In this document: positions 3,855 through 58,241 of the stretch, one piece after another
How the letters are laid out: the number at the start of each line of letters is the position of its first letter
Numbering within the stretch: the first letter of the stretch is position 1
IMG/VR virus record: IMGVR_UViG_3300045988_156427
From: a virus
Taxonomy: Duplodnaviria; Heunggongvirae; Uroviricota; Caudoviricetes
Direction: 5' to 3' (one strand)
DNA length: 64,000 nt
Made by a program: the position numbers and the translations under genes
The notes under the pieces: model-generated
What the model saw: the letters and a program-made list of their open reading frames with translations, nothing else
Databases searched by the model: none
What the model was told of the DNA's origin: nothing

Positions 3855-5774
3855 ATGGAACAGTTCAATATCAATAAAGGGGTGACGATCAAGCCTGGGC
3901 TTGACGTGCTTCCCCCGCCAGTGACTGATGATGAATATCGCGCATTAATGGCCGGTGAGGACCGCTATCTGATGACGGAATCCAACACCCTGGAAGAAAT
4001 CGAGGCTACGTTCTTCTATGACACGCCGATCCACTGGTGTGCTACGGATTTACTGGAGGCGATTAGTTCTACTCGTTTGCAGCTACACCGGACCATGCAG
4101 GCATTTGTCCGGGCATTGAACCAGAAGCTGAATGGTACCGGAATCTCTGCGGGGAGTGATAAAACGGGGGATGTGGCCCAGAACGGTGCACGCGCGATCG
4201 GCGGGGCTGAAATTGGCCGGGCACGTAACGTTAACGGGCTGCCGGTTCTGCCAGCCATTATTCCGCTCAGTGATGGTCAGACTATCAGCATTCTGTTTCA
4301 TAGCCCGACAGCGGAAAACCGGATCACCAATAGCGATACGCTGATTGCTTTCCAGTTCTTACTGAATAAAAAAGACGTTACTCATACCGTTGCTCCGATG
4401 AGTGGACGTGATATGACGCTGGCGCAGGTCACCATGAAACTTGCCAACCTTGCAGAGAAAAACTCGGCAAAATTCCAGCGTGCGCAGAAGAAGAAAAAAG
4501 CCCTGGTTGATGAAATAACCCAACTACAGGCTGACAGTGACCAGAAAGAGGATGCCATGAGCGACCTCGCGGATCAGGTGGCAGCGGTAGAAGGGCAGAA
4601 GGTAGATTTGGAGCAGAAAATTAACGCTGTTGCATCGGAAGCGGATTCTCTTTATGAAGAGAATGAGCGTTTGCAGACGGAGATTGATCAGCTCAATCGC
4701 ACTGGTGGGCGCGAAACCATTGCTCCTGCGGGGATGACTGGTGGACACTCTCGCGCGATGACGGATCGCCTTGCAAGTATCAAAAATCGTATGCATATGA
4801 ACGGGGAAGTGACGCTCAGTAATGGTGCATCAATGAAGCAATTCATTGAGGACGGTGAAGGGTATATCCAGTTAACCGATTCGGATGGCAGCGTGTACAT
4901 GATCAAGGCTAAATCCATACAGGGCGTGGACATGGCAGATGCGATCGGCAAGCTGTTTAAAGCCTATAAAGCGGGTAATGTATCGGAATACCTGGTCCAA
5001 ACAGAAGAACATAAACCGGAAAAGGTCGAACCTGAACCAGCGGAGGATACCGGTAGCTCTTCGCCTGAACCAGAAGTCTCTGTAGGTGCATATCGATATG
5101 CCCTGCAAATGCGTCCGGCGGCCCCTGGCGCAATACCTGAAAGTAACAAAGCAATTCTGCCGCGCCCTGATGAAGGTGACCCGTATTATGAATATGCACG
5201 CTACGGCATTGCTACTTACGATACCCCGATTTCTGATCAGCAAATGAGTGAGTACGACCTGAAGTTATTGCCTCGCGAGGATTCTTTCGACTTCCTGGCG
5301 AAGACACTTACTAATGGTCCGTTTGGCAAATATGCACAAAAAGCTCTGGAGCTGGCCACCAGCTCACCAGACGAGTTCCGCGTAATGCTGAAAACTCAGT
5401 TTCAAAAAACTTTCCCCAATATTGCGTTTCCTGGGGGCGCTGGCACCGAGAAAATGGTGCAGAGCATGATCAATGCATTGCAGGCCGAAGTCGGTGAGAT
5501 TACTCAGCCAGAACCGGCCCCGGCACAGCCTGATGAAACGGTTAGCGAAGCAGATGCAGAGGCTAATAAAGCCATTGAATATCTCAATAACGTGATGGAT
5601 ATGCAAAGCACTGACATGGCGGAGATCCGTAACGCTCGGGGCAATGTCCGGGAAGCGATTGCAGCCCTTCAGGCTGCCGGACGTTTTGAGGAAAACGAAG
5701 AGCTGGTTAACGGCGCAGCTCGCCACCTGGCTGATCTGTTGGTAGCAATCCAGAAAGCGGGGGTAGCGGCATGA
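3855..5774 (+). CDS. darA: DarA, virion-packaged anti-restriction protein
   Basis: 639 aa; position and size match the P1 dar operon. Confidence 0.7.
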   Translation: MEQFNINKGVTIKPGLDVLPPPVTDDEYRALMAGEDRYLMTESNTLEEIEATFFYDTPIHWCATDLLEAISSTRLQLHRTMQAFVRALNQKLNGTGISAGSDKTGDVAQNGARAIGGAEIGRARNVNGLPVLPAIIPLSDGQTISILFHSPTAENRITNSDTLIAFQFLLNKKDVTHTVAPMSGRDMTLAQVTMKLANLAEKNSAKFQRAQKKKKALVDEITQLQADSDQKEDAMSDLADQVAAVEGQKVDLEQKINAVASEADSLYEENERLQTEIDQLNRTGGRETIAPAGMTGGHSRAMTDRLASIKNRMHMNGEVTLSNGASMKQFIEDGEGYIQLTDSDGSVYMIKAKSIQGVDMADAIGKLFKAYKAGNVSEYLVQTEEHKPEKVEPEPAEDTGSSSPEPEVSVGAYRYALQMRPAAPGAIPESNKAILPRPDEGDPYYEYARYGIATYDTPISDQQMSEYDLKLLPREDSFDFLAKTLTNGPFGKYAQKALELATSSPDEFRVMLKTQFQKTFPNIAFPGGAGTEKMVQSMINALQAEVGEITQPEPAPAQPDETVSEADAEANKAIEYLNNVMDMQSTDMAEIRNARGNVREAIAALQAAGRFEENEELVNGAARHLADLLVAIQKAGVAA

Positions 5775-6136
5775 CACTATCAGCTATTGAGTTAATGGAT
5801 CTCAGCGATAAGTTGGATGCTCTGATGTCCAAAGCGGCTACCGCGAGTGGCATGGAGTTGCTGGATATCAGCGATGAAATTGACCAGATCATGCAACAGA
5901 TGGGGTACGGTGTGTCCGGCGGCAGTAGTGGCGAGGAAAAACAACCTTCGGTACATGATGGTGTGCCAAAACTGGTTGCTGATTTCCTGGCTGATAAATT
6001 CGTCGATCAGAGCACCGATGCATTTATCGGTACCTTGCAGGATTTGAGTCAATATGTTGGCACATACATCGACCTGGACCAGGTTAAACAGCACACGGCG
6101 GCATGGATAGCCGCCAACATTAAAGAGGCAGCATAA
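5771..6136 (+). CDS. ddrA: DdrA, small acidic Dar-operon protein
   Basis: 121 aa, ATGA overlap with darA stop; synteny. Confidence 0.5.
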   Translation: MTLSAIELMDLSDKLDALMSKAATASGMELLDISDEIDQIMQQMGYGVSGGSSGEEKQPSVHDGVPKLVADFLADKFVDQSTDAFIGTLQDLSQYVGTYIDLDQVKQHTAAWIAANIKEAA

Positions 6137-15846: not shown

Positions 15847-18800
15847 ATGAACAAGCTATCTATGGGGGTGTTTCGCTGTTCAAGTGTCAGCGAAATATTG
15901 AAATACATTAGGGCAATAACATCTCACCGAGCGCCGATTAAATACGGCGTGGAAAAGGTGGAAGGCAAAAGCTATGACCGACTGCGCCGGGAGGCGAATC
16001 AGAAGGCGATAGATTTGCTTAATTCGCTGGTGGACGGCGCGACACTGACAGATGAACAGCGCCAGATCCTGGCTGGGTACACCGGTGAAGGCGGCATTGG
16101 CGGGTCCGTCTCCGAATATTACACACCAAAGCCGATCGCTGAAGGTGTCTGGGAGATCATGAAGCTCTACGGCGCGGACGTAGGTAACACTCTGGAACCA
16201 TCGGCGGGCACCGGCGTTTTTAATGAGACAAAACCGGTTGGTACGGTGATGACTGCGACTGAGATCAGCAGTGTTTCCGGTCGTATAAACCAGCTGTTAC
16301 ACCCGGAAGACAGCGTACAGATTTCCCCGTTCGAACAGCTGGCTGTAAGCACGCCTAACGATTCATTCGACCATGTTGTGGGTAACGTTCCGTTCGGTGG
16401 TCGTGATAACACACGCAACATCGATAAGCCTTACGCAGAAGAAACGGACATGGGTTCTTACTTCATGCTCCGCATGCTGGACAAGATAAAGCCAGGCGGA
16501 TTCATGTGCGTGATTGTGCCGCCGTCCATTGTTTCAGGTTCAAACATGAAGCGGTTACGCCTGCGCCTATCACGGAAAGCTGAATTTCTTGGTGCTCACC
16601 GCTTGCCTACCGGTACTTTTGACGCAAACGGGACCAGTACAGTCGTTGATGTGGTGCTGATGCGCAAACATCCGGCAGAGATGGCTGAGAAAATCCCCCT
16701 GGTGGATGAAAGCACTCTTGAATCGGCAAATGTGCTTTGGCCAACGTTTATTTCTGGCAAGTGGTTTGAAAAGGACGGTCGCCGGTTTGTTCATGGCACC
16801 CAGGAGAAGGGATTCCAGGGGCGTATTGAGGTTCGTGCCGACGGGCAGATTGATAACCAGGCTCTTAAAGCGAAGCTGATTCATCGTTTCGAAAGTCGTA
16901 TCGACTGGTCTTTGCTCAATATGGCTGAACCGTCACCGACCGCAGACGTTGTTGATGAAGGGGAAATGCGCCTGATTAATGGCGTATGGCAAAAATATGC
17001 TGGTGGTCGCTGGATTGAATCTGATGCAGGGAAGGAGCTGAAGATTGATGTTGCCAGTTATGGCGCGGACAGCTGGGAGGCTCTTCAGCGTAACCTGACT
17101 ACAACAGAAGGCCGTCTCGGTATGACATTTACCCAGATGGCAAATGTCCGCGATAAGTACACCACATCAATCAGCGACGATATGGTGCAGCTGGTGGACT
17201 GGATTAACAGCCAGCCTGAAAAATACCGTGAACGCTTGTATCGCGGGGCGATGATTGGCCGGATGTTAATTGAATATCAGGACATGAAGGCCGCCGGGCA
17301 TAGTGCTGAACAAATCGAACAGCAGCGCCTTTCTCTGGTATCCCGTTTGCAGGCAGAGATTGACCGTTTTGGTAACCCCGGTCGCGGTCCGATAGCGAAA
17401 TTATCGGGGAGCGGTGCGCGCGCCTGGTTTGCTTTCCGTGGTGCAATTAAGCTGGATGGCACTATTTCTGACGAGCTGACAGGAAAACTGGTTACGCATG
17501 ATTCCAGCGCCAGTTATGACTCCACCAGCTATCAGGACACCCTGCGTTATCTCTACAGTGATCTCACTCGCGATCCAATCCAGCTCGATGATTTCCGCCT
17601 TGCGTTTACCGGCGAACTGCCAGCCAGTGATGACGAGTTGCTTAATTTATTGGCCAGCACCCCTGGTATTGCGGTTTCACCGTATGGCGGGATTGTTCCG
17701 TTCGCCCGCGCCACCAGCGGCGACATTAACGAGATAGTGGCTCCAAAACAGGAATTCCTCGCCACACTCCCCGACGGTCCAGTAAAGAACAACGTCCTTA
17801 ATCAGCTGGCAGCTATCGAAGAGAAGCGCATCAAGACGCCAGCAGAGAATATCCGGTTTAAGCTCAATAGCCGTTGGTTCGACCGTTCCGTCATTCTGGA
17901 ATTTTTGCAGGAAAACGGCTATCCGGATCTGCGCTATGTGCAGTCAGTGCAGCTGGAAGGCGACGAAATGGTTTCTGACACCTATCACGGTGGTGATGGT
18001 CTGTTCGTCGGGCACCGATACGGTGTCGTCCAGCGCAAGGATAAAGAAACAGGTGAGATTCGCTACGAGTGGGACCGTAAATCAGGTGAAAACGCGACCG
18101 GGTTCCCGGCACAGCTGGAAAAGTATCTCAATGGTGCGCGTATCGGTGGCAAAGATAGCGCGACGGCGAACGGCTACCGCGAGCAGATGGCACTGCTTGA
18201 GGACCAGTTCAATAAGTGGATCAAGACGCACGATCGCTACGATGAACTGGTTACCAAATACAACGATGTGTTCAATAGCAATATCCCGTATGAACACTCT
18301 GGCGATCCGCTTGGGTTGAAGGGATTAAGCGGTAAGCGCCAGCCATTTGATTACCAGAATAGCGAGGTGCGCCGACTGTCCGAAGATGGGCGCGGCATCC
18401 TGGGCTTCGGCACCGGGCTGGGTAAAACCACGACCGCGCTGGCGCTTGAGGCGTTCAACTATGAGAACGGTCGCTCCACCCGTACTGCGTATGTAGTGCC
18501 TAAATCAGTGCTGGAAAACTGGTATTACGAAGCAAAAGAATTCCTGAGTGAAGAGGCATTCAGTAACTACCTGTTCGTCGGTCTTGATGTGCTGATGGAT
18601 GGCGATCAGATTCGCCAGGTGCCGGTGCTCGATGAGAACGGTAAACCTGTTCTTGGTACTGATGGCACTCCCGTTATGCGCGATGCTCTTAAGCTGGCAG
18701 ATGAAGCCACTATCACGGCGCGGATGAACGCGATCCCGCACTCAAATTACCGTGCAGTCGTGTTTACCAAAGAACAATACGCCCGCATTCCTCTACGTGA

Positions 18801-21800
18801 TGACACCGTAGATGAGCATGCACAGGATATGCTTTATGACTTCGTTGCCGCCGGGCGCGTAGCCAGCGCAATGGATTCCGATTCCCATCGCAAAGAGGCG
18901 GCGCGTCGCCGGGTATTGTCGGAGTATTCAGATACCGGTACCGAAAAAGCAGAGAAGTATCCGTACTTTGAGGATATGGGCTTCGATAGTGTGATCGCTG
19001 ACGAAGGTCACAACTACCGCAATAGCTATAAAAATGGTCGCGAAGCGTCACAACTGGCCTATCTGCCCACCAGCGCGGTGGCGCAATCGGCGCGAGATAT
19101 GGCAATTAAAAACGCGTACCTGATGAAAAAGAATGGCGGGCGCGGGCCGGTTCTCCTGACTGCAACGCCAGTCGTTAACACCCCGATCGATGCATACAAC
19201 ATGCTTTCTCATGTTCTGCCGAAGGAATACTGGCAGAACATGGGGATCTACGGTCCTGATGACTTCGTTAAATTCTTCGGCAAGACCAGGCTGGAAACGG
19301 TGCAGAAAATCAGCGGTGAAGTTGAAGAAAAAATGGCGCTGGTGGGCTTTGAAAACCTTGATGCGCTGCGCGGTATATTCCATCGCTGGGTAACGCTTAA
19401 AACGGCGGAAGACGTTAAGGATACCGTGGAGATCCCGGAGCTGGACGAACACCAGCAGGATGCACCACTTACTGAAGAACAACTGGCGGCGTATGAAGAA
19501 TTGCGTCAGCAGGCGGAAGCGGCGGCAAAAGCCAACAATGGCGTTACGACCTCGGTCAATGAAGACGGCGTGATTGAGCACGAGAAAGCCCGTCCGATCT
19601 TCTCAATAATCAGGGATATGGACCGCGTATGTACTGACATGGACCTGTACTATCGCCGGATCACCTATCGTTTCCTGCCGGAGTACGCCGATGCGGTGCA
19701 GCAGCTGGCGGACAGTTTGCCTAAACAAGCCACCAGCGAAGACGACGACAGTGATGATTCAATCACGCAGCAATCGCAATACTCCCTGATAGATAAGGGC
19801 GAGTTTATTCAGTTGCAGGTTCCGGAAGCGTTCGAGCAGGAAGTGAATAAGCGCCTGGCCAGGTTTGGCATTGACGAACAGACCGTAACTCACCCCGTTA
19901 CGCCGAAATACGCGAAGCTGATCGCCACGCTGAAGGAGTTTTTCCCGGAAGGTAAGCAAATCATCTTCACCGATGAAAAAACGCAGCACCAGAAGCTCAA
20001 GCGCATTATCTGCAATGCTCTAAACCTTGAACCTTCAAAGGTGGGGATCCTGAATGCTCAGACGGTTGCCGAGGCAGGTAAAACCGGTAAGAAACTGAAA
20101 GCGGTTAAACCGCCGAAAGAGCTACCGGATGAACCAACAGATGCACAGATAGCGAAATACAACGAGCAAATGGCTCTGTATGACGCCTATATCGCGCAGC
20201 AAAATGAAATGTCGTTGGGCGGTCTGGAAAAGATTGCAGCCGACTTCCAGGAGGGCCGGACTCCGATCATCATCTGCAACAAAAAGGCAGAGGTGGGTAT
20301 CAACCTGCATCGAGGAACGACTGACATCCATCATCTGACGTTGCCATGGACACCAGCCAGTATCGCACAGCGTAACGGTCGCGGTGCTCGAGTTGGCTCC
20401 AACCGTGCAAGCGTTCGCGTTCACTACTACTGCGGCAAGGGGTCTTTCGATGAATACCGATTGAAGACGCTGAAGCGTAAAGCAGGCTGGATCTCCGATA
20501 TCCTCCGTTCAGATAAGTCGGAAATGGAGAACGCCGACGCCAATGACATGATCGAAATGCAGATGTATACCGCGAAGGATGACGGCGAACGTCTGGCAAT
20601 GATGCAGGTTCAAATGGATAAGGCGAAAGCTGCGAAACGCGCTCGCCAGAAAGAACAGGCTACTATCGACCTTCAGAATTACATCAAGGCGCAGCACGCA
20701 GCTGGCGAGGATGTGGAGGTACTTACCGCTGAATTGGAGCGAAGCAAAGCGGAACTTGAAAAGACCACCGCCGAGGTAGCTAAATTCAAACAGGTGGTAA
20801 TGGCCAAAGCAGCTGATAACGCAGACTGGAAAGCCCGCTGGGGTAGCGTCCATCACACAGACCGTATGTTGTTAGCACAGTATCGCGCGTCGTTGAAAAG
20901 CGCCATTCAGCGCAAGGCTAATATCTCTCAGGCCATCTCCCGCTATGAGAAATTATTGAACCGTACTCAGAAGGCCGCGACGGATATCAAACGCCTGCGC
21001 CCGCTGGTGGAGGATGCAATAAATAAAGGCATTCTGGATGTTGATCCTGATCTGGTTAACCATGCGAATGAGTTCCTTGTTATCGGCGATCGCTCATGGC
21101 GTGTAGGCCAATACTATGATTGTGCCGGTGATATCGTTCGCATTAAGTCGCTGGACTTCGACAGCCAGCGCGCAGACGTGGAGATCATCTTTACCTTCAA
21201 AGGCACCAAATCGGGTAACTGGGATGTGAAGACGCTGGATAAACAGGTTGATGTAACTCCCGATGAAGATGCTGTTATGCAGAAAATCAGTGGTGGCGTC
21301 TCCATCGCCGGGATTAACGACATCATTTCCTGTGACGATTTCTACCGTTTCCAGCAGCGCGGCATGATCAAAATCACTGACTCATACGGCGTTCAGACTA
21401 CAGAGTCAGGCTATAGCATCGATTTTGTTGGTACCTATACGGACCCACTGAAGCATGCGGTTTACCCGGATCGCCGTGACGGCGCGCTGAAGTCGTCAAT
21501 TGCAAAATGGGTGCTTGGTATGATGTCGGAAGGGAATAACCGCCAGATCCGTTCGGCAGAAACATTCCTGGTTGAATTGTTTGGCTCCAATTATGGCGAT
21601 GTAATCGCGTCATACGGAGATACGCTATCCCCTGAAGCAATTCAGGAGAAAATAGCGGATGCGATCGCCAGAATGCCGGAAAAAACAAGCCAGGGGGCTA
21701 CTCGTAACGGGGATTCTGAACTTGAAGTCACCAATGCCATTTTCGGTACCAATGAGTTCCGGGGGTCAGATTATGAGATCACCACAGCACAGTTTGGCAC

Positions 21801-22614
21801 CATTGGCATTTACAGCAATAAAGCCGAGATCAAGCAGGCAATGGACGCAGCAAGCGCGCGCATCGCAGCAGAACGGGAAGCCAATCTGAATCATGCAGTC
21901 GCCGCGCTGACTCAATCGTGGGTAACAGCAATCAGGGAGGCCGCCACCACAGGGAAAATCACACCTGCAATAGCGGATGTCGTAAACGACGGCTCTAAAT
22001 TTATGGATGCCTATCAAATGGATGCGGTGAAGTTGCCATCAGCCTATGGTCAACTCAGCTATCGCATGACCTACAACCTGGTATCAATGTTTTCCGACCT
22101 TGCCATCCTTGGGCTGGTGGATCTTAACGAGGTTACGCCGGAATTGCTCAGCATGCGCAAGAATCATGTGGAGATATTGCAGAGAATTAACACGGTTCTT
22201 GCCGGGCGCACCGATGAAGAGAAACAGGCCGACGCTGATCGGATAAACCTAGCCCTTGGCAACATCACGGAGGAAGAGATTGCCGCCAGAAACGAGAAAC
22301 AAGAAGAGTTATCATCAATACAGGGTGATGCCACCAGCATAGCTCAGTCTCTTGGTCTGAATTATCGCGTATCCACCGCCGACCTGAAGATGATGTACGC
22401 ACCAAAATTCGCCGCTGGCGAGGTATTTGGGCTTCAGGAAGCCTCAGGCATGAAAGGCGTTCTTTTCCGTGCGAAAGACGCAATCAAGGCGAAATTCGGC
22501 GCTCGCTGGCTGCCAGCGAAGGCGAAGAACAGCGATTTCCCGGGTAACTGGTGGATTATCGAGACAAAACACAACGTGGCGGACGTTCTGGCCGTCATCC
22601 AACAATACGCATAA
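15847..22614 (+). CDS. darB: DarB, giant methyltransferase-helicase anti-restriction protein
   Basis: 2255 aa; N-terminal N6-adenine MTase-like motifs, Walker A GLGKTTTALAL and DEGH box. Confidence 0.85.
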   Translation: MNKLSMGVFRCSSVSEILKYIRAITSHRAPIKYGVEKVEGKSYDRLRREANQKAIDLLNSLVDGATLTDEQRQILAGYTGEGGIGGSVSEYYTPKPIAEGVWEIMKLYGADVGNTLEPSAGTGVFNETKPVGTVMTATEISSVSGRINQLLHPEDSVQISPFEQLAVSTPNDSFDHVVGNVPFGGRDNTRNIDKPYAEETDMGSYFMLRMLDKIKPGGFMCVIVPPSIVSGSNMKRLRLRLSRKAEFLGAHRLPTGTFDANGTSTVVDVVLMRKHPAEMAEKIPLVDESTLESANVLWPTFISGKWFEKDGRRFVHGTQEKGFQGRIEVRADGQIDNQALKAKLIHRFESRIDWSLLNMAEPSPTADVVDEGEMRLINGVWQKYAGGRWIESDAGKELKIDVASYGADSWEALQRNLTTTEGRLGMTFTQMANVRDKYTTSISDDMVQLVDWINSQPEKYRERLYRGAMIGRMLIEYQDMKAAGHSAEQIEQQRLSLVSRLQAEIDRFGNPGRGPIAKLSGSGARAWFAFRGAIKLDGTISDELTGKLVTHDSSASYDSTSYQDTLRYLYSDLTRDPIQLDDFRLAFTGELPASDDELLNLLASTPGIAVSPYGGIVPFARATSGDINEIVAPKQEFLATLPDGPVKNNVLNQLAAIEEKRIKTPAENIRFKLNSRWFDRSVILEFLQENGYPDLRYVQSVQLEGDEMVSDTYHGGDGLFVGHRYGVVQRKDKETGEIRYEWDRKSGENATGFPAQLEKYLNGARIGGKDSATANGYREQMALLEDQFNKWIKTHDRYDELVTKYNDVFNSNIPYEHSGDPLGLKGLSGKRQPFDYQNSEVRRLSEDGRGILGFGTGLGKTTTALALEAFNYENGRSTRTAYVVPKSVLENWYYEAKEFLSEEAFSNYLFVGLDVLMDGDQIRQVPVLDENGKPVLGTDGTPVMRDALKLADEATITARMNAIPHSNYRAVVFTKEQYARIPLRDDTVDEHAQDMLYDFVAAGRVASAMDSDSHRKEAARRRVLSEYSDTGTEKAEKYPYFEDMGFDSVIADEGHNYRNSYKNGREASQLAYLPTSAVAQSARDMAIKNAYLMKKNGGRGPVLLTATPVVNTPIDAYNMLSHVLPKEYWQNMGIYGPDDFVKFFGKTRLETVQKISGEVEEKMALVGFENLDALRGIFHRWVTLKTAEDVKDTVEIPELDEHQQDAPLTEEQLAAYEELRQQAEAAAKANNGVTTSVNEDGVIEHEKARPIFSIIRDMDRVCTDMDLYYRRITYRFLPEYADAVQQLADSLPKQATSEDDDSDDSITQQSQYSLIDKGEFIQLQVPEAFEQEVNKRLARFGIDEQTVTHPVTPKYAKLIATLKEFFPEGKQIIFTDEKTQHQKLKRIICNALNLEPSKVGILNAQTVAEAGKTGKKLKAVKPPKELPDEPTDAQIAKYNEQMALYDAYIAQQNEMSLGGLEKIAADFQEGRTPIIICNKKAEVGINLHRGTTDIHHLTLPWTPASIAQRNGRGARVGSNRASVRVHYYCGKGSFDEYRLKTLKRKAGWISDILRSDKSEMENADANDMIEMQMYTAKDDGERLAMMQVQMDKAKAAKRARQKEQATIDLQNYIKAQHAAGEDVEVLTAELERSKAELEKTTAEVAKFKQVVMAKAADNADWKARWGSVHHTDRMLLAQYRASLKSAIQRKANISQAISRYEKLLNRTQKAATDIKRLRPLVEDAINKGILDVDPDLVNHANEFLVIGDRSWRVGQYYDCAGDIVRIKSLDFDSQRADVEIIFTFKGTKSGNWDVKTLDKQVDVTPDEDAVMQKISGGVSIAGINDIISCDDFYRFQQRGMIKITDSYGVQTTESGYSIDFVGTYTDPLKHAVYPDRRDGALKSSIAKWVLGMMSEGNNRQIRSAETFLVELFGSNYGDVIASYGDTLSPEAIQEKIADAIARMPEKTSQGATRNGDSELEVTNAIFGTNEFRGSDYEITTAQFGTIGIYSNKAEIKQAMDAASARIAAEREANLNHAVAALTQSWVTAIREAATTGKITPAIADVVNDGSKFMDAYQMDAVKLPSAYGQLSYRMTYNLVSMFSDLAILGLVDLNEVTPELLSMRKNHVEILQRINTVLAGRTDEEKQADADRINLALGNITEEEIAARNEKQEELSSIQGDATSIAQSLGLNYRVSTADLKMMYAPKFAAGEVFGLQEASGMKGVLFRAKDAIKAKFGARWLPAKAKNSDFPGNWWIIETKHNVADVLAVIQQYA

Positions 22615-22647: not shown

Positions 22648-23088
22648 ATGGCCACACTATCTGATACAATAAAACCGAATAAAACATATCTTGAGGCGGT
22701 ACTCCGTACAGCGTTGTTAGGAAAGACAGAAGACGAATACGTTGATTTCTTCCTGTCAGGGCTACGCGGGCGATTACTGAAAAATCCCCGCCTGTACCGC
22801 AGCTATGGTCCATACTGGCCGGAAATTAAAAAATTATTACTGGAGCGCGGTTATGGTAATTTCGGTCGTCTCGTTGACCGTGACGTTCGCAAAATTTACC
22901 GTTATGACCGCCCGGCGCTAACACTCATAGCCGCGACGCTCTACAGCCAGGAGCGTTTTGATAATGGTCAGATATACTCAGCCTGGCATTTACTGCCAGT
23001 GCCTGAAGAAGTTGACGACCAGGACTATGAGTTTGAGTCTTACGATTTGGAAGTTGAAGCCTTGGCACAGGCTGGAGAGAAAACTTGA
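22648..23088 (+). CDS. ulx: Ulx (gene upstream of lxc)
   Basis: 146 aa between darB and lxc; positional call. Confidence 0.5.
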   Translation: MATLSDTIKPNKTYLEAVLRTALLGKTEDEYVDFFLSGLRGRLLKNPRLYRSYGPYWPEIKKLLLERGYGNFGRLVDRDVRKIYRYDRPALTLIAATLYSQERFDNGQIYSAWHLLPVPEEVDDQDYEFESYDLEVEALAQAGEKT

Positions 23089-23333
23089 AAAAGCGATACT
23101 ACACAGTAAAGCATGGGACGCTACGAGCATTACAAGAGTTTGCTGACAAGCATAACGTTGAGGTGCGCAGGGAAGGGGGAAGTAAAGCTCTGCGCATGTA
23201 CCGTCCGGACGGAAAATGGCGGACGGTCGTCGATTTCAAAACTAACAGCGTTCCCCAGGGCGTCCGCGACCGGGCATTCGAGGAATGGGAGCAGATCATC
23301 ATAGATAACGCATTGCTCCTGAATGCTGATTAA
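23085..23333 (+). CDS. lxc: Lxc/Bof, C1 co-repressor
   Basis: 82 aa, basic; TTG start with GGAGAG RBS overlapping the ulx stop; size and position. Confidence 0.55.
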   Translation: MKKRYYTVKHGTLRALQEFADKHNVEVRREGGSKALRMYRPDGKWRTVVDFKTNSVPQGVRDRAFEEWEQIIIDNALLLNAD

Positions 23334-23337
23334 GAAC

Positions 23338-23366
23338 TCTCCGGCCTAGGGAGATTAGGCCGGAGA
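23338..23366. terminator. Hairpin between convergent lxc and the SIR2-like gene
   Basis: TCTCCGGCCT-N9-AGGCCGGAGA inverted repeat then AT-rich tract. Confidence 0.4.
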
Positions 23367-23374
23367 TAAATATA

Positions 23375-24679
23375 CTATATAAACTTAGATATAATATCGT
23401 GAATCTGTTGTAGCGGGATTTCTTCCATCTTACTCTTAATAAGAGAGCGGTTAGATGCTGTCAGTGAAGGCCATTTTGTTTTCCAGGCTAGATATGCTCG
23501 CCATGAGTAGCCTGTTTCGTAAGGTTTATTCATATAAGTCATTGAGTGTTCAACCGCATGTATGTATTTTTTCTCAAAGTTGGTTCCTTTTACTTCAAAT
23601 AAACTACCGAAATAAATAAGCCATTTTGCCAGGTGTTCATACTGCTCCCATGCGCCAGACTCTTTAGTAAGATCTATTTTTTTATCTATTATATCACAAA
23701 AAACATTTAATACCTTTTCATCATTCCAGCTATATCCAGATGATGAAATGGAGGAAATGATATGATAAAAAGAATCCTCTAACTTCAAGAACTCTATTTT
23801 ATACTCTCTTCCGTTTTTTATTACCGATTTGATTGAGTGCCTCAATTTGTCTTTTATTTTTTTTGCTTCTGGAATTTTCTTGTTAAGTTTTCTAAAGAAA
23901 TCAGACACCTCTGTTTTATCTATAACCCTAATCCCAAAGCAGGAAAAATAGTAATCTTTAATAGGTTGCAATAGTTTTCCTCGGGAAATAAGGAAAATAT
24001 TGGAGGACATTACGTTGTCCCGTGAAAATACCTTATATTCATTTATAATCGCCTTGAGGTTCGCGTCACTTAGAGAATAGCCAAGAATAACAATAGTGTT
24101 TTCATGTAGAACTGTGCTTAGTTTATTTGAAAAGTAAGAATTACCATTTATAAATCTGAAATAATCCTCGCTAGTAACAACCATATCTGATGGGGAGTCT
24201 ATAGAGCCGTGAACATGGTAGACTTTAACCTCACAATTATATTTTGGAATTGGCAGGCCGGGGGTGATTGTACACGTTCGATTCTCTCCAGCCAGTTTTT
24301 CTGCTAACTTGTCATAATTTGTCGTAATTACTTTAAATGTGTTTTCTTTGAAAAAGTCTTGAATATATTCAATTGATGGATCAAGTTCGATTGAGGCTAT
24401 GATTTTCTCAATCTCCTGGTAAATATTTTTCCCCGAAAGTATAAATTTTAGTGCAATAACCTGAGCAGCCTCTTCAAGGCTAAGGTCTTTTGCTTTTCCA
24501 TCAGGAAATAATTCCTCTTTGAGTGAGTCACCATCCTTCAATAAACCGCACAGTTGCTCCAATAAAGATTGCCAACTTGGGGCTTTATCATCAGAAACAG
24601 CCTTTGAAAATCCAGTGCCTGTAAGAAAGCACAGCCTATGTGTAGCTGCTGCATAGGCAATTTCTATATACTCGCTCAT
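23375..24679 (-). CDS. SIR2-like (DHS-like NAD-binding) protein with an uncharacterised ~170-aa C-terminal domain; candidate NADase defence effector
   Basis: 434 aa; GTGFS (aa 21-25), TTNYD (119-123), VHGS (156-159), ILGYSLSD (198-205) fit SIR2-family motifs; AT-rich island; ATG with GGAG RBS. Confidence 0.75.
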   Translation of the reverse strand: MSEYIEIAYAAATHRLCFLTGTGFSKAVSDDKAPSWQSLLEQLCGLLKDGDSLKEELFPDGKAKDLSLEEAAQVIALKFILSGKNIYQEIEKIIASIELDPSIEYIQDFFKENTFKVITTNYDKLAEKLAGENRTCTITPGLPIPKYNCEVKVYHVHGSIDSPSDMVVTSEDYFRFINGNSYFSNKLSTVLHENTIVILGYSLSDANLKAIINEYKVFSRDNVMSSNIFLISRGKLLQPIKDYYFSCFGIRVIDKTEVSDFFRKLNKKIPEAKKIKDKLRHSIKSVIKNGREYKIEFLKLEDSFYHIISSISSSGYSWNDEKVLNVFCDIIDKKIDLTKESGAWEQYEHLAKWLIYFGSLFEVKGTNFEKKYIHAVEHSMTYMNKPYETGYSWRAYLAWKTKWPSLTASNRSLIKSKMEEIPLQQIHDIISKFI

Positions 24680-24735
24680 TACTTACTCCATTTACTTATA
24701 GTTCTACGGAGAAGTATACCCTAATGCATTGACGT

Positions 24736-25377
24736 TTATAGATAATTTCCTTTTCCTGTTAATACTCCCTTAGGCACCTGTTTTTGTGCCAGCGTTTGGG
24801 TTCCGCGAATTATGTTAATCAGAGGGCTTAGTAACGATGGTTCCTGGCGTGCCTCAACTTCTCCAGCCATTGCCCTGATGTAGTCTGCGCTGGCAACGTT
24901 GTTGTATTCCGTCGCAAAGCAACATAGTAACGTCAGAACATGCTCTGTCGTTATTTCGCTCCAGTTGATGTTGAAAAATTCATCGCCTTTTTTATCGTGT
25001 TCGGAATCGAAGATGCTTTGGTGGAGGATGTATTTGCCGGATTCCTTGCGCGGTAACTTGATCGCTTTCTGGCGTTCCAGCTCCTTGTAAATCTGCATTG
25101 CTTCAATCAGTACCGGCCTGCCGTTCATGAAGGGATCGCGCAACCTTACACGCTGGCCAACTCGACCAGTAATAAAGCTGTTTTCCTCTTCCACCAGCAC
25201 GATAAAACCCTTTTCCTCTTTTTCTCGCAATTCGCGCAGCAGCTGGAGTTCCATGTCGCGGCGGCGTTCAGGGTAGCTGGTCCGCTCAGCCATTATCAGC
25301 TCGTTGTTGATCCATGCAGCAGTCATTGACGCCGGTTTGCCGACGCTCATCGAAACAACGCATATTTTCTTATCCAT
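24736..25377 (-). CDS. Hypothetical protein at the position of P1 mat
   Basis: 213 aa from ATG 25377 with AGGGG RBS; backbone GC content; positional only. Confidence 0.4.
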   Translation of the reverse strand: MDKKICVVSMSVGKPASMTAAWINNELIMAERTSYPERRRDMELQLLRELREKEEKGFIVLVEEENSFITGRVGQRVRLRDPFMNGRPVLIEAMQIYKELERQKAIKLPRKESGKYILHQSIFDSEHDKKGDEFFNINWSEITTEHVLTLLCCFATEYNNVASADYIRAMAGEVEARQEPSLLSPLINIIRGTQTLAQKQVPKGVLTGKGNYL

Positions 25378-25565
25378 AGCGCCCCTACAAAAAAGAAAAG
25401 CCACCAGCGGCGGCTTAGCAATACAACTGAAGGTAGCGCCCGGTACTCAGACTGTGCCGTCCATGGAATATTTGAAAAGGGATCCATCCGTACCGGGCGT
25501 GTGATGATTCTGACTCAAGTCACTTGTCAGTTGTCAATCATTTAAGATTAAAAATAATATATTTA

Positions 25566-26735: not shown

Positions 26736-27767
26736 CTAATTGCCATCTTCCAGCAGGCGCACCATTGCCCCTGTTTCACTATCCAGGTTACGGATATAGT
26801 TCATGACAATATTTACATTGGTCCAGCCACCAGCTTGCATGATCTCCGGTATTGAAACTCCAGCGCGGGCCATATCTCGCGCTGCTCCGACACGGGCACT
26901 GTGTCCAGACCAGGCCAGGTATCTCTGACCAGAGTCATCCTTAGCGCCGTAAATCAATCGATGAGTTGCTTCAAAAATCCCTTCCAGGGCGCGAGTTGAT
27001 AGCTGGCTGGTGGCAGATGGCGCGGCAACACCATTTTTTCTGACCCGGCAAAACAGGTAGTTATTCGGATCATCAGCTACACCAGAGACAGAAATCCATC
27101 GCTCGACCAGTTTAGTTACCCCCAGGCTAAGTGCCTTCTCTACACCTGCGGTGCTAACCAGCGTTTTCGTTCTGCCAATATGGATTAACATTCTCCCACC
27201 GTCAGTACGTGAGATATCTTTAACCCTGATCCTGGCAATTTCTGCTATACGTAGCAGGGTATTATAAGCAATCCCAAGAAATGCCAGATTACGTATATCC
27301 TGGCAGCGATCGCTATTTTCCATGAGTGAACGAACCTGGTCGAAATCAGTGCGTTCGAACGCCAATGCCTGTTTTGCACGTTCACCGGCATCAACGTTTT
27401 CTTTTCGAATCCGCCGCATGACCAGTGAAACAGCATTGCTGTCACTTGGTCGTGGCAGCCCGGACCGACGATGAAGCATGTTTAGCTGGCCCAAATGTTG
27501 CTGGATAGTTTTTACTGCCAGACCGCGCGCCTGAAGATATAGAAGATAATCGCGAACATCTTCAGGTTCTGCGGGAAACCATTTCCGGTTATTCAACTTG
27601 CACCATGCCGCCCACGACCGGCAAACGGACAGAAGCATTTTCCAGGTATGCTCAGAAAACGCCTGGCGATCCCTGAACATGTCCATCAGGTTCTTGCGAA
27701 CCTCATCACTCGTTGCATCGACCGGTAATGCAGGCAAATTTTGGTGTACGGTCAGTAAATTGGACAT
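26736..27767 (-). CDS. cre: Cre site-specific tyrosine recombinase
   Basis: 343 aa; MSNLLTVHQNLPALPVDATSDEVRKNLMDMF... matches Cre along its length as I recall it; cognate loxP 420 bp upstream. Confidence 0.98.
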   Translation of the reverse strand: MSNLLTVHQNLPALPVDATSDEVRKNLMDMFRDRQAFSEHTWKMLLSVCRSWAAWCKLNNRKWFPAEPEDVRDYLLYLQARGLAVKTIQQHLGQLNMLHRRSGLPRPSDSNAVSLVMRRIRKENVDAGERAKQALAFERTDFDQVRSLMENSDRCQDIRNLAFLGIAYNTLLRIAEIARIRVKDISRTDGGRMLIHIGRTKTLVSTAGVEKALSLGVTKLVERWISVSGVADDPNNYLFCRVRKNGVAAPSATSQLSTRALEGIFEATHRLIYGAKDDSGQRYLAWSGHSARVGAARDMARAGVSIPEIMQAGGWTNVNIVMNYIRNLDSETGAMVRLLEDGN

Positions 27768-27996: not shown

Positions 27997-28185
27997 TTTT
28001 CACCTCTGATTGATTGGTGGTGCTAAGTGCGCTACGCGAAATCTGTAGGACTAACACCGCCAATTTTTCACAGATTTTACGTAGCGCAACCTTGATCAAA
28101 TGATCAAGTGGTCACTATTTGACCTGCTAAGGTATTGAACTGTATGGATTTACAGGTAAATTGATCATATTCAATAACCCTTAAT

Positions 28186-28219
28186 ATAACTTCGTATAAT
28201 GTATGCTATACGAAGTTAT
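28186..28219. other. loxP recombination site (ATAACTTCGTATA-ATGTATGC-TATACGAAGTTAT)
   Basis: Exact 34-bp loxP: two 13-bp inverted repeats around an 8-bp spacer. Confidence 0.97.
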
Positions 28220-28262
28220 TAGGTCCGAAGAGGAGTTTACGTCCAGCTGCGCATAAAAATCA

Positions 28263-28279
28263 AGAATTATTAGAGCAAT
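28263..28279. promoter_or_regulatory. C1 operator-like site in the immC control region
   Basis: TTATTAGAGCAAT, 15/17 to the reverse-orientation consensus. Confidence 0.6.
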
Positions 28280-28345
28280 AAATTTTGAGAGAAAAACCCC
28301 ACTCCACCAGCCAAAAACTGGATTGTTTTTCATAGTTGTTTGACA

Positions 28346-28362
28346 ATTGCTCTAATAAATTA
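28346..28362. promoter_or_regulatory. C1 operator overlapping a -35-like TTGACA
   Basis: TTGACA-ATTGCTCTAATAAATTA, 16/17 to consensus. Confidence 0.7.
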
Positions 28363-28600
28363 TAGTTTTGCCGCCGTTTCGTAATACGACTTTGGATTCA
28401 CTATTTAATGTGTCTTCAGCGTTGTAGAGCGGCTCAGAAGGAAATGAGCAAACAGGGAAACCTTATACAACGGCATTACAGCTATGCATTGCTCATCTTA
28501 CACACAGCGCAATGTTGTTAGATTACCCCAGCATGGATCATGGGTGAAACAGTAGGTCAGAGCTTCAGGCTCTGTGTTGTCAATACAGTGAGGCATAATT

Positions 28601-56384: not shown

Positions 56385-56460
56385 TGGTGGCCCCTACCGG
56401 ACTTGAACCGGTGACCGTGCGATTATGAGTCGCCAGCTCTAACCACTGAGCTAAAGGGCC
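56385..56460 (-). tRNA. tRNA with anticodon CAU (Ile2-lysidine type or Met)
   Basis: 76-nt cloverleaf: acceptor GGCCCTT/AGGGGCC, GCTCAGTGGTTAGAGC D-arm, GGTTCAAGTCC T-arm, encoded CCA. Confidence 0.85.
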
Positions 56461-56463
56461 GGA

Positions 56464-56571
56464 TTACTGTTTCCTGAGTGCTTCTATGACGCCAGCAATA
56501 CCGCCTACAACTATGCCAGCAATGACAACGAGAACAATTGGATGCTTGTCAGCAAAATCCCAGAAGCCCAT
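56464..56571 (-). CDS. 35-aa hydrophobic peptide (third gene of the tci-like cluster)
   Basis: ATG overlaps upstream stop (TGATG); one TM helix; ends 3 nt before the tRNA. Confidence 0.4.
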   Translation of the reverse strand: MGFWDFADKHPIVLVVIAGIVVGGIAGVIEALRKQ

Positions 56572-56735
56572 CACTGATCCTTAGAAGCTGTTTTTAATAT
56601 CGGCCATACCAATGTTACAGCTACTGCTACCAACGCCCCGTCGGATAAAACCGACAGGATTGTGCTGGTGAAATCCACCAGCACAGATAGCACGAGAAAA
56701 ACCAAAGCCAGAATTAGACGTGCTTTTATAACCAT
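56571..56735 (-). CDS. 54-aa hydrophobic peptide (second gene of the tci-like cluster)
   Basis: ATGA overlap with the TerB-like gene stop; one or two TM helices. Confidence 0.4.
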   Translation of the reverse strand: MVIKARLILALVFLVLSVLVDFTSTILSVLSDGALVAVAVTLVWPILKTASKDQ

Positions 56736-57160
56736 CAGATATACTGTTCCAGTGGCAATTGAAGAGCCTGGGCAATTTTCTTCAATTGCTCCTGCTCTTC
56801 TGCCCCAATGCCATCCTGGTCAGCAATATCAATGCATAGGCACAGAACATCTACCGCATCATTAGTTCCAGACACGTCAGCCAGTTCACGTAAAGCCTGG
56901 GCATTCGCTCGGCGCGGCGAGGCTTCATATTGAGCGCGAATATTGGCGCTCATCTGGGCAATTTCACCGGAGAACGGCGCAAAGGCAGGAAGTGCTGCAA
57001 TGGTTTTTTCCAACACTGCAATTTCTTTCGCATCGCAGGTGCCGTCAGAGTATGCAATGGAATATGCGCCCCAGACAGTCGCTTCCACCGCATCACGGTT
57101 TTCCATCTTCTTGACTCCGCCAGCCGCTTTGCGGAATTTCTTTTTGAGAATGCCGAGCAT
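56735..57160 (-). CDS. tciA: TerB-like tellurite-resistance-domain protein
   Basis: 141 aa; TerB-like helical domain with acidic C-terminus; TGAGG RBS. Confidence 0.6.
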   Translation of the reverse strand: MLGILKKKFRKAAGGVKKMENRDAVEATVWGAYSIAYSDGTCDAKEIAVLEKTIAALPAFAPFSGEIAQMSANIRAQYEASPRRANAQALRELADVSGTNDAVDVLCLCIDIADQDGIGAEEQEQLKKIAQALQLPLEQYI

Positions 57161-57301
57161 TTATTAACCTCATTACTGGTTGGGAAATAAGGTTGCGGTG
57201 CCGGGTGCTTCCCGGTGTCCTTTGGCTGGTTATCCACCATGGACGGGGAAATAAGGAGAAATAATGGACAGATATAACCATTTCCCCGCGTGCGCTTAGC
57301 C

Positions 57302-58086
57302 GCATTCACCGCAACGGAAAGAGCATTCCTGGTGGACCTGTAGATTGGGATATGAACCCGTTACAGGAGAATGCTCTTACCTGTTACGTGCTCCGTTTCG
57401 TGGAGCTAACGGCGGGTGATCGGGCCGCACCAGACTGGACTTATTTCAGCGTTATGCTCATGCCAGAGAATCAAACTGTGATGGTCGGTGCTGAACTCCG
57501 ACACAGGGTTGTAGCAAGCCCCGCAAAGCGCGCACTACTGTAGTTGCGGCACATCAGCCTGTGCATTCACCACAATGTTGAGAACACTGGTTGTCACGCT
57601 GCAACGCAACATTTATTCGTAGATTGGGATATGACCCCGTTACGCCAGTGTTCTCAACGTTGTAGTGCCGGTTACGGTTCCGGCCAGGCCTCTTCCTCAA
57701 CGGGGTGTTCTCCATACGGACTACCGTTTATTGGTCGTTCCTGCGGTTTATGTTGTGAAGCCAGATGCTTATCTTCTGGTTGCTTCAAAGAGCTGCACTT
57801 CATCACAACGGTAAGAGCACTCGATGCATTTAAGCCAAGCCCCATAAGGGAGAATGCCCTTACCTGTTGTGTTGTGATGACCGGTGCTGATCTCCGGCTT
57901 GCGGTTATTTCAGACTCTCACGGGCGTTTAATTGCCCCGCCGAACAGCTCTTTTCCGCAATAGCTGCAATGTCTTTCGCGCATCAGCCTGCGCATTCATC
58001 ACAACGGTAAGGGTACTTCGTAGGGATTCGAACCCTCTGCCAAGCTCGGCGATCTCCGACGTCGCAAAATACCCTTACCTGTTGTG
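57302..58086. repeat. Family of four long imperfect stem-loop repeats between tciA and the tRNA genes
   Basis: Related 18-25-nt arms pair at 57303-57328/57366-57392, 57571-57590/57644-57666, 57801-57818/57853-57875, 57997-58016/58066-58086; two loops share GTAGATTGGGATATGA(A/C)CCCGTTAC, one holds a T-arm-like GGGTTCGAATCCC. Confidence 0.5.
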
Positions 58087-58087
58087 C

Positions 58088-58163
58088 TGGTGCCGATTAA
58101 CGGACTCGAACCGCTGACATCCTGCTTACAAGGCAGGCGCTCTACCAACTGAGCTAAACCGGC
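58088..58163 (-). tRNA. tRNA-Thr (anticodon UGU)
   Basis: 76-nt cloverleaf GCCGGTTTAGCTCAGTTGGTAGAGC...CTTGTAA...GGTTCGAGTCC...CCA. Confidence 0.9.
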
Positions 58164-58165
58164 AT

Positions 58166-58241
58166 TGGCGATGGTGGATGGATTTGAACCATCGACCCGT
58201 TGATTAACAGTCAACCGCTCTAACCGCTGAGCTACACCATC
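58166..58241 (-). tRNA. tRNA-Asn (anticodon GUU)
   Basis: 76-nt cloverleaf GATGGTGTAGCTCAGCGGTTAGAGC...CTGTTAA...GGTTCAAATCC...GCCA. Confidence 0.9.

Follow-up and report, generated by a model that had tools for sequence, protein, structure and literature searches.

A compact SIR2 protein as cargo of the lxc-mat slot in P1-like phage-plasmids: a candidate single-protein abortive-infection system

The fusion of SIR2 effectors to varied sensors is a well-known theme. Single-protein SIR2 defences, of which DSR2 is an example, deplete nicotinamide adenine dinucleotide (NAD+) (PMC11087589, PMC10973363). Functionally, the closest precedent for a standalone SIR2 defence of small size is sole-Sir2, a single Sir2 protein of ~440 amino acids (aa) that is CRISPR-supervised (CRISIS), converts NAD+ to ADP-ribose in vitro and has a close homologue that protects Escherichia coli against T2 and T4 (bioRxiv 10.1101/2024.12.27.630466). 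A defence with an unrelated effector, CapRel-SJ46, is a fused toxin-antitoxin taken from phage SJ46 and validated as an abortive-infection system (PMC9712102). The locus analysed here belongs to a P1-like phage-plasmid that is represented by a stretch of 64,000 nucleotides (IMG/VR record IMGVR_UViG_3300045988_156427; hereafter ‘the window’). Between the backbone genes lxc and mat it carries a single gene encoding a 434-aa protein (hereafter ‘the SIR2 protein’), in which an N-terminal SIR2 domain is followed by an all-helical C-terminal domain (‘C-domain’). In type, it would be a variant within an already familiar category, the abortive-infection system in which one protein unites SIR2 and a sensor. 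We consider it probable that the gene encodes a self-contained system of this kind and is swappable cargo of the lxc-mat hotspot. The features on which the argument relies are the following.

23375-24679, minus strand: gene of the SIR2-solenoid protein, 434 aa, ATG start (open reading frame (ORF); product identical to WP_000006034.1)
23918-24679, minus strand: N-terminal SIR2 (SIR2_2) domain, aa 1-254 (Pfam, Protein Data Bank (PDB) sequence matches, Foldseek and motifs)
23378-23917, minus strand: C-terminal all-alpha repeat domain, aa 255-434, a putative sensor or regulatory domain
23334-24735, no strand assigned: cargo segment of the lxc-mat hotspot, low in guanine plus cytosine (GC), with a single gene (composition and alignment borders)
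23085-23333, plus strand: lxc, backbone gene and left border of the slot (the ulx-lxc segment is 97.8-98.9% identical to P1/P7, where it is annotated ulx, lxc)
24736-25404, minus strand: mat, backbone gene that closes the slot on the right and shares its strand with the SIR2 gene (a match to mat in P1-like phages)

The protein belongs to the SIR2_2, or defence-type SIR2, superfamily and has its active-site Asn and His intact. Pfam SIR2_2 (PF13289) matches aa 117-245 with 83.8 bits for a cut-off of 24.5 (E = 1.6e-23), and four motifs, namely G21-T22-G23-F24-S25, T119-T120-N121-Y122-D123, H157-G158-S159 and G200-Y201-S202-L203-x-D205, are invariant, including N121, D123 and H157, in 40 homologues of 52-60% identity (the codons of Asn121 and His157 are found at 24317-24319 and 24209-24211). 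A preliminary description of the locus, made from its letters alone, had placed the four landmarks at these very residues and had proposed the SIR2 family, which the family profile and the structural neighbours now bear out. Profiles of PADLOC and NCBIfam for ThsA, Dsr1, Dsr2, LmuA-SIR2 and PDC-S25 also match, at the SIR2 core. Among PDB sequences, the matches are ThsA, DSR2 and KomC; TTNYD is aligned with DSR2 and ThsA, VHG is also aligned, and the residue found opposite His157 is the DSR2 histidine mutated in the H171A structures. The AlphaFold2 model of the full protein, built from the 40-sequence alignment (predicted local distance difference test (pLDDT) 83, predicted template modelling score (pTM) 0.79), has an alpha/beta SIR2 fold that ends near residue 253; residues 258-289 then form a long helix, behind which a helical bundle takes up the rest of the chain. 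In a Foldseek comparison with the PDB, 37 matches reach E <= 0.001, each of them to DSR2, KomC (Kongming) or ThsA, with a probability of 1.0 and a template modelling (TM) score of ~0.6 normalised to SIR2-only chains; weaker matches are human FAM118B, Avs5 and SIR2-HerA, and the bacterial structural neighbours are all antiphage NADases. By analogy with these enzymes, the SIR2 protein would be an NAD+ hydrolase. Residues 181-220, which include GYSLxD, are the most conserved stretch of the family (93-96% column identity), and the least confident parts of the model fall at 24062-24139 (residues 181-206; pLDDT < 50 at 188-195 and 202-207); in the model, this conserved stretch of low confidence may be a mobile loop of the active site or of an interface.

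That the domain is instead a protein-modifying enzyme, in other words an NAD-dependent deacylase or an ADP-ribosyltransferase acting on a host or P1 protein to the advantage of the element, for example in lysogeny control or host physiology, and not an NAD-depleting effector, is unlikely. Some SIR2-family enzymes do ADP-ribosylate proteins, one RefSeq name in use is ‘SIR2 family NAD-dependent protein deacylase’ (WP_000006034.1 itself is named ‘SIR2 family protein’), the flanking lxc and mat are regulatory or morphogenetic, and the slot can carry non-defence cargo (a pair of AraC-type regulator and EAL-domain genes, see below). However, the domain matches SIR2_2 while the classical sirtuin model PF02146 gives no match at E <= 1, and the CxxC pairs of the sirtuin zinc module are absent from the sequence; with PF02146 unmatched and the Cys4 zinc module missing, a classical sirtuin protein deacylase is rejected. 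The structural neighbours at E <= 0.001 are all antiphage NADases, no classical sirtuin appears among the 50 Foldseek matches listed, and the homologues are mostly chromosomal and often found beside defence genes, not with P1 functions. An orthologue with a known non-defence role, named in the preliminary description as one of the findings that would overturn it, was not found.

The C-domain is the part of the protein in which that description had recognised nothing, and nothing like it emerges from the searches either. Modelled alone, aa 255-434 form nine helices (pLDDT 82.8, pTM 0.76). A profile search of PDB sequences with the domain gives nothing significant, the best Foldseek match has E = 0.09 with DSR2 not in the list, and an exhaustive profile search yields only 95 clusters among 1.84 billion representative proteins. 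Every full-length match in the latter is ~400-480 aa long and has the domain C-terminal to SIR2 (at about 230-465 in the matches). The inspected short matches are fragments that start within the SIR2 domain, a match of 820 aa is a spurious repeat protein, and fusion to other effectors is rejected, none being found in this search; the C-domain is exclusive to the SIR2 fusion. Its invariant core comprises W344, Q346, Y347, W353, S392, W393, W399, W403, N410 and R411. Confidently folded, with a Trp-rich invariant core of its own and always C-terminal to SIR2, it has in the models the appearance of a functional module. It is also the faster-diverging part, with a mean pairwise identity of 56% versus 70% for the SIR2 domain. 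In the allele of 97.6% identity, nonsynonymous changes cluster in the C-domain, and for the closest pair of P1-borne alleles the nonsynonymous to synonymous counts are 11:4 in the C-domain versus 4:11 in the SIR2 domain (Fisher p = 0.027), and both allele pairs compared have more synonymous than nonsynonymous changes in the latter domain. Faster divergence of this sort, seen here in small numbers, would be expected of a domain that serves in recognition.

How the protein relates to described systems depends on which part is compared. DSR2 of Bacillus subtilis likewise combines in one chain an N-terminal SIR2 NADase domain and, behind it, one or more alpha-helical repeat regions, and it is the best structural match to the SIR2 domain (Foldseek E ~1e-6); its TTNYD and VHG motifs align. 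By analogy, it offers a plausible model in which a trigger would bind the helical part and NAD+ depletion would follow. It differs in size (the equivalog has ~1000-1200 aa versus 434 aa here), and membership is rejected because NCBIfam Dsr2 gives 30.6 bits for a cut-off of 1400 and covers aa 117-212 alone. A DSR2-type sensor region is rejected as well, since the C-domain has no homology to the DSR2 C-terminal region, and so is DSR1 membership, since that profile matches the SIR2 core alone. ThsA of Thoeris resembles the SIR2 protein in length (~470-480 aa), in its N-terminal SIR2_2 domain and in significant sequence and fold matches, but its C-terminal SLOG domain binds glyco-cyclic ADP-ribose (gcADPR) and it needs the TIR partner ThsB, whereas here the C-terminal part is an all-helical repeat and no TIR gene is present; Thoeris is rejected because ThsA profiles match aa 117-236 alone, SLOG and Macro domains are lacking and the neighbours are lxc and mat. 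Sole-Sir2, compared by description only, has its Sir2 domain at the C-terminus behind a non-DSR2 N-terminus, the opposite order to that of the SIR2 protein, and its gene sits inside type I-C cas operons, while no cas context is found among the inspected members of the SIR2 family described here. PDC-S25 / phrog_2695 (~520-530 aa) is, like the SIR2 protein, a single-gene SIR2 candidate and gives the best PADLOC score (E = 5e-24); it is rejected because aa 100-253 align to profile positions 127-283 of 517 (~30%) and the remaining architectures are unaligned. SIR2-HerA (Nezha) is rejected for want of a HerA gene in the window, its PADLOC profiles being weak (E = 2e-6 or worse), and Lamassu because the LmuA profile matches at positions 20-219 of 433 and the island has no SMC-like LmuB gene. 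The preliminary description had held the protein to be far shorter than DSR1/DSR2 and outside the known architectures; at 434 aa it is shorter, and membership of DSR2, ThsA, SIR2-HerA, Lamassu and PDC-S25 fails.

The second line of evidence comes from the slot. The same lxc and mat that enclose the SIR2 gene bracket res and mod in reference P1 (order mat, res, mod carrying IS5, lxc; res/mod being EcoP1I), so the slot is the res/mod slot of P1, as first described. Its AT-rich island with one ORF is also as first described: GC is 0.30-0.39 over 23350-24700 versus ~0.50 in the flanks, the lowest-GC kilobase of the entire 64 kb is the island and its sole ORF is 23375-24679. In alignments with three genomes, RCS47, SJ46 and MH422554, similarity ends exactly at the lxc stop and returns at the mat 3′ end, from which the cargo interval follows as 23334-24735, the interval first described; the extreme 3′ end of mat varies between cassettes. 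Terminal direct or inverted repeats are absent from the island borders, on which ground transposon-type mobility of the cassette is rejected and recombination in the conserved flanks would be the simplest route of exchange.

Other elements carry other genes at this place. EcoP7 res/mod occupies it in P7, a 373-aa RelA/SpoT protein in Salmonella phage SJ46, a 346-aa DUF2971 protein related to the PADLOC candidate PDC-S31 in MH422554, a 316-aa PIN-domain protein (PIN_12) in JL22 and an AraC-type regulator with an EAL-domain protein in Ro157c2YLVW, while in RCS47 it is empty. The lxc-mat interval is a multi-allelic cargo hotspot with exact borders. The claim that res/mod was exchanged for the SIR2 gene therefore holds as to the identity of the slot but not as to the direction of the exchange. 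The DUF2971 and PIN occupants look like further single-gene defence candidates; DUF2971/PDC-S31 proteins also adjoin two chromosomal SIR2 homologues. The SJ46 protein is the validated CapRel-SJ46 (PMC9712102), which shares with the SIR2 gene the identical slot, the mat strand, the fusion of effector and sensor in one gene and the promoter layout at the junction, and differs in its toxin, which is of an unrelated, tRNA-pyrophosphorylating RelA/SpoT type and is joined to a pseudo-zinc-finger sensor.

Frequencies were counted as gene presence in 5426 complete E. coli genomes, the slot position being verified for sampled records. The ulx-lxc backbone is found in 699 of them (~13%) and the SIR2 gene in 70 (69 over >= 80% of its length), with 71 of its 72 copies on plasmids, so that ~10% of E. 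coli P1-like elements carry it. The AraC+EAL pair is present in 140 genomes, EcoP1I-like res in 88 (57 on plasmids), DUF2971 in 62, PIN in 30 and CapRel-SJ46 in 14, the SIR2 gene being ~5 times as frequent as the last. The protein is 100% identical in at least 18 P1-like plasmids, and the SIR2 alleles have 92-100% nucleotide identity. Two of them differ by 2.4% and 7.6% (loci L098 and L099 compared with positions 22648-25404 of the window), despite which the Ulx and Lxc proteins are identical in all three elements; identical flanks with differing alleles imply that the cassette diverges or is exchanged independently of its flanks.

Such a distribution bears on a further alternative, to which we give only a slender chance, that the protein is not a broad antiphage defence but a toxin that keeps the plasmid in its host by post-segregational killing or helps P1-like elements to compete with each other by superinfection exclusion of related phage-plasmids. 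The gene is on a low-copy plasmid prophage, alleles of 92-100% identity between identical flanking proteins suggest selection on the cassette itself, and NAD depletion would be toxic. Yet the 1.4-kb island contains no antitoxin-like small ORF, phd-doc already provides P1 with an addiction module, the family is mostly chromosomal and no partner gene recurs beside its members.

Full-length homologues (43-61% identity) come from Gamma-, Beta- and Alphaproteobacteria, plus a few metagenome-assembled genomes labelled as other phyla, and most members are chromosomal, not plasmid-borne. Their neighbourhoods were analysed by calling ORFs within 3 kb of the SIR2 gene in 69 non-redundant loci and clustering them. 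No gene family is present within 3 kb in more than 3 of the 69 loci, and those that share one are from closely related genomes. As the preliminary description had noted for the window, TIR, HerA, pAgo and STAND partners, and also SMC ones, are not adjacent here, and none is recurrent in the 69 loci; the SIR2 protein stands alone, without a conserved partner gene. Tightly spaced upstream genes are varied (aconitase, HsdR, NERD-UvrD, AbiU and HtpG), and the upstream gene in Acinetobacter was rejected as a partner, being an aconitase that reflects synteny only. In two Proteus genomes, an ORF of 303-305 aa overlaps the SIR2 start codon by 7 nucleotides (positions 5097-6005 of locus L040 and 5079-5993 of locus L057); one of these ORFs has no Pfam match and the other a marginal match to DMTF1_N, and neither has a PADLOC match. 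This ORF is a possible exception, the sole hint of a lineage-specific operon partner.

Among 120 genes directly beside the homologues, about 12-14 match PADLOC profiles strongly, namely type I restriction endonuclease, AbiU, AbiD, PD-T7-1, PD-T7-5, ThsB, HamB, NERD-UvrD, PDC-S31 and dGTPase; the ThsB-like gene occurs once among the 120 flanking genes. Neighbours matching ‘mad3’ were not counted as defence genes because they are probably ABC-F ATPases, as is the single one examined, and SMC_N matches occur in 2 of 120 neighbours, one of which was examined and is an ABC-F ATPase. Of two divergent members, one lies beside a type I restriction-modification (R-M) system and PemK and the other beside a PIN/MazE pair. 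An E. coli chromosomal homologue (436 aa, 56% identity) is located at a prophage edge near ccm/narP (loci L003-L006), directly after the prophage integrase in three of four places, a position typical of prophage-borne defence cargo. Very unlikely, finally, is that the protein is the effector half of a multi-component system with its sensor or signal generator, such as a Thoeris-like TIR protein, encoded elsewhere in the P1 backbone or the host, since, although ThsA profiles match the SIR2 core, one homologue adjoins a ThsB-like TIR gene and two Proteus homologues have the ORF overlapping their start by 7 nucleotides, a SLOG or Macro ligand-binding domain is lacking, the C-domain is all-alpha, no neighbour family exceeds 3 of 69 loci, and the gene is a single-gene cassette between exact borders that is found alone next to a prophage integrase.

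A standalone defence gene also needs its own expression signals. These are listed below.

24686-24689, minus strand: Shine-Dalgarno sequence GGAG, 6 nucleotides upstream of the ATG (read from the sequence)
24735-24762, minus strand: TTAACA-N16-TATAAA, a candidate sigma-70 promoter (found by eye) that overlaps the stop codon of mat
23338-23366, no strand assigned: hairpin between the convergent lxc and SIR2 stop codons, with a 12-bp stem (-22.2 kcal/mol)

The ATG, the GGAG ribosome-binding site and the hairpin had all been pointed out beforehand and are present: the position of the start agrees with 39 homologues, and the hairpin is more stable than expected from shuffled sequences (z = -5.25; 0 of 200 shuffles fold as well). 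A terminator scan also lists the hairpin as terminator-like on the minus strand, with a weak T-tract, and it is a probable bidirectional terminator. The SIR2 gene begins 56 bp downstream of mat on the same strand. In reference P1, mat is annotated with an operator under C1 control and with a late promoter, for which reason a defence gene at this place would need a promoter of its own. The equivalent site of the CapRel cassette in SJ46 (about 2505-2532 of locus L091) reads TTAACA-N16-TATAAT, while the -10 is degenerate at this site in the empty slot of RCS47 and in P1, where res is convergent. Common to the SIR2 and CapRel-SJ46 cassettes is a junction layout with the -35 inside the mat 3′ end and the -10 over the mat stop, and protection by CapRel-SJ46 is obtained with its native promoter (PMC9712102). 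On these two grounds, it is proposed that the backbone would provide the -35 and the cassette the -10 of the SIR2 promoter.

Taken as an abortive-infection system, the SIR2 protein would be present but inactive in the lysogen, with expression driven by the gene's own promoter at the mat 3′ end. Its helical repeat domain would recognise a product of the infecting phage, most likely a protein, either directly or by controlling oligomerisation, and recognition would free the SIR2 domain to hydrolyse NAD+. Loss of NAD+ would arrest the infected cell while the cycle of the invading phage is still incomplete, and sister cells carrying the P1-like element would thereby be protected.

Several points weigh against this abortive-infection interpretation. 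It leaves unexplained why the lytic cycle of P1 itself would not trigger the protein. The sensor role of the C-domain is drawn from analogy and from a modest difference in rate, and the more distant allele pair displays no difference between the domains (p = 0.48). The promoter scanner found no consensus promoter for the SIR2 gene, TTAACA-N16-TATAAA being skipped because position 6 of its -10 is A. The slot position alone is no proof of defence, the AraC+EAL pair being unlike defence, and many neighbours of the homologues are housekeeping genes. PADLOC profiles cover the SIR2 core alone, and a DefenseFinder survey of ~850 P1-like elements names type III R-M, dGTPase, PrrC and CapRel, with SIR2 not listed. 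Literature searches on the accession, on PDC-S25 and on SIR2 in P1-like elements returned no report on the protein or its family. The view that this module is undescribed consequently needs qualification: the protein is unnamed and no functional report on it was found, but it is catalogued as WP_000006034.1 and as phrog_7567 (a match from end to end, 434/434, E = 7.6e-291, with no function assigned), and sole-Sir2 is a precedent of ~440 aa.

A more ambitious reading, for which we see an even chance, goes beyond a self-contained defence. The SIR2 protein would then be the founding member of a family of compact single-protein immune sensors, its alpha-solenoid being a new pattern-recognition module that switches on a SIR2 NADase on binding a phage component other than the tail-tube trigger known for DSR2, and its gene an interchangeable allele of the slot beside EcoP1I and CapRel, and the commonest recognisable one of defence type in E. 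coli. In a more radical version, the SIR2 domain may not deplete bulk NAD+ but act, for example, by targeted ADP-ribosylation.

The SIR2 gene is carried by about one in ten of the E. coli P1-like elements, themselves present in ~13% of complete genomes, and is missed by current defence-annotation pipelines. Should it prove active in abortive infection, it would influence which phages, therapeutic ones included, can grow on many clinical and livestock strains of E. coli, Salmonella and Klebsiella. With 434 aa and a sensor-sized domain of ~180 aa, it would be among the smallest SIR2 sensor-effector fusions and thus tractable for studying how a SIR2 NADase is restrained and activated. The lxc-mat slot, with its exact borders and probable built-in promoter, also helps in looking for more candidate defences of one gene, the DUF2971 and PIN proteins being examples.

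The P1-like genome also encodes Ref and C8. The preliminary description had stated that the Dar anti-restriction operon is kept; DarB and Ulx are present.

15847-22614, plus strand: DarB, 2255 aa (ORF)
22648-23088, plus strand: Ulx
26736-27767, minus strand: Cre

A search for structured RNA gave no Rfam match in the island, the only Rfam matches in the window being three transfer RNA genes elsewhere. These are on the minus strand at 56385-58241, with anticodons CAT, TGT and GTT, in keeping with what a P1-type genome should contain. GC also drops, to 0.36-0.37, in a second patch at 28000-28450 of the window, just past cra/cre, which is probably the intergenic region proximal to lox and c1.

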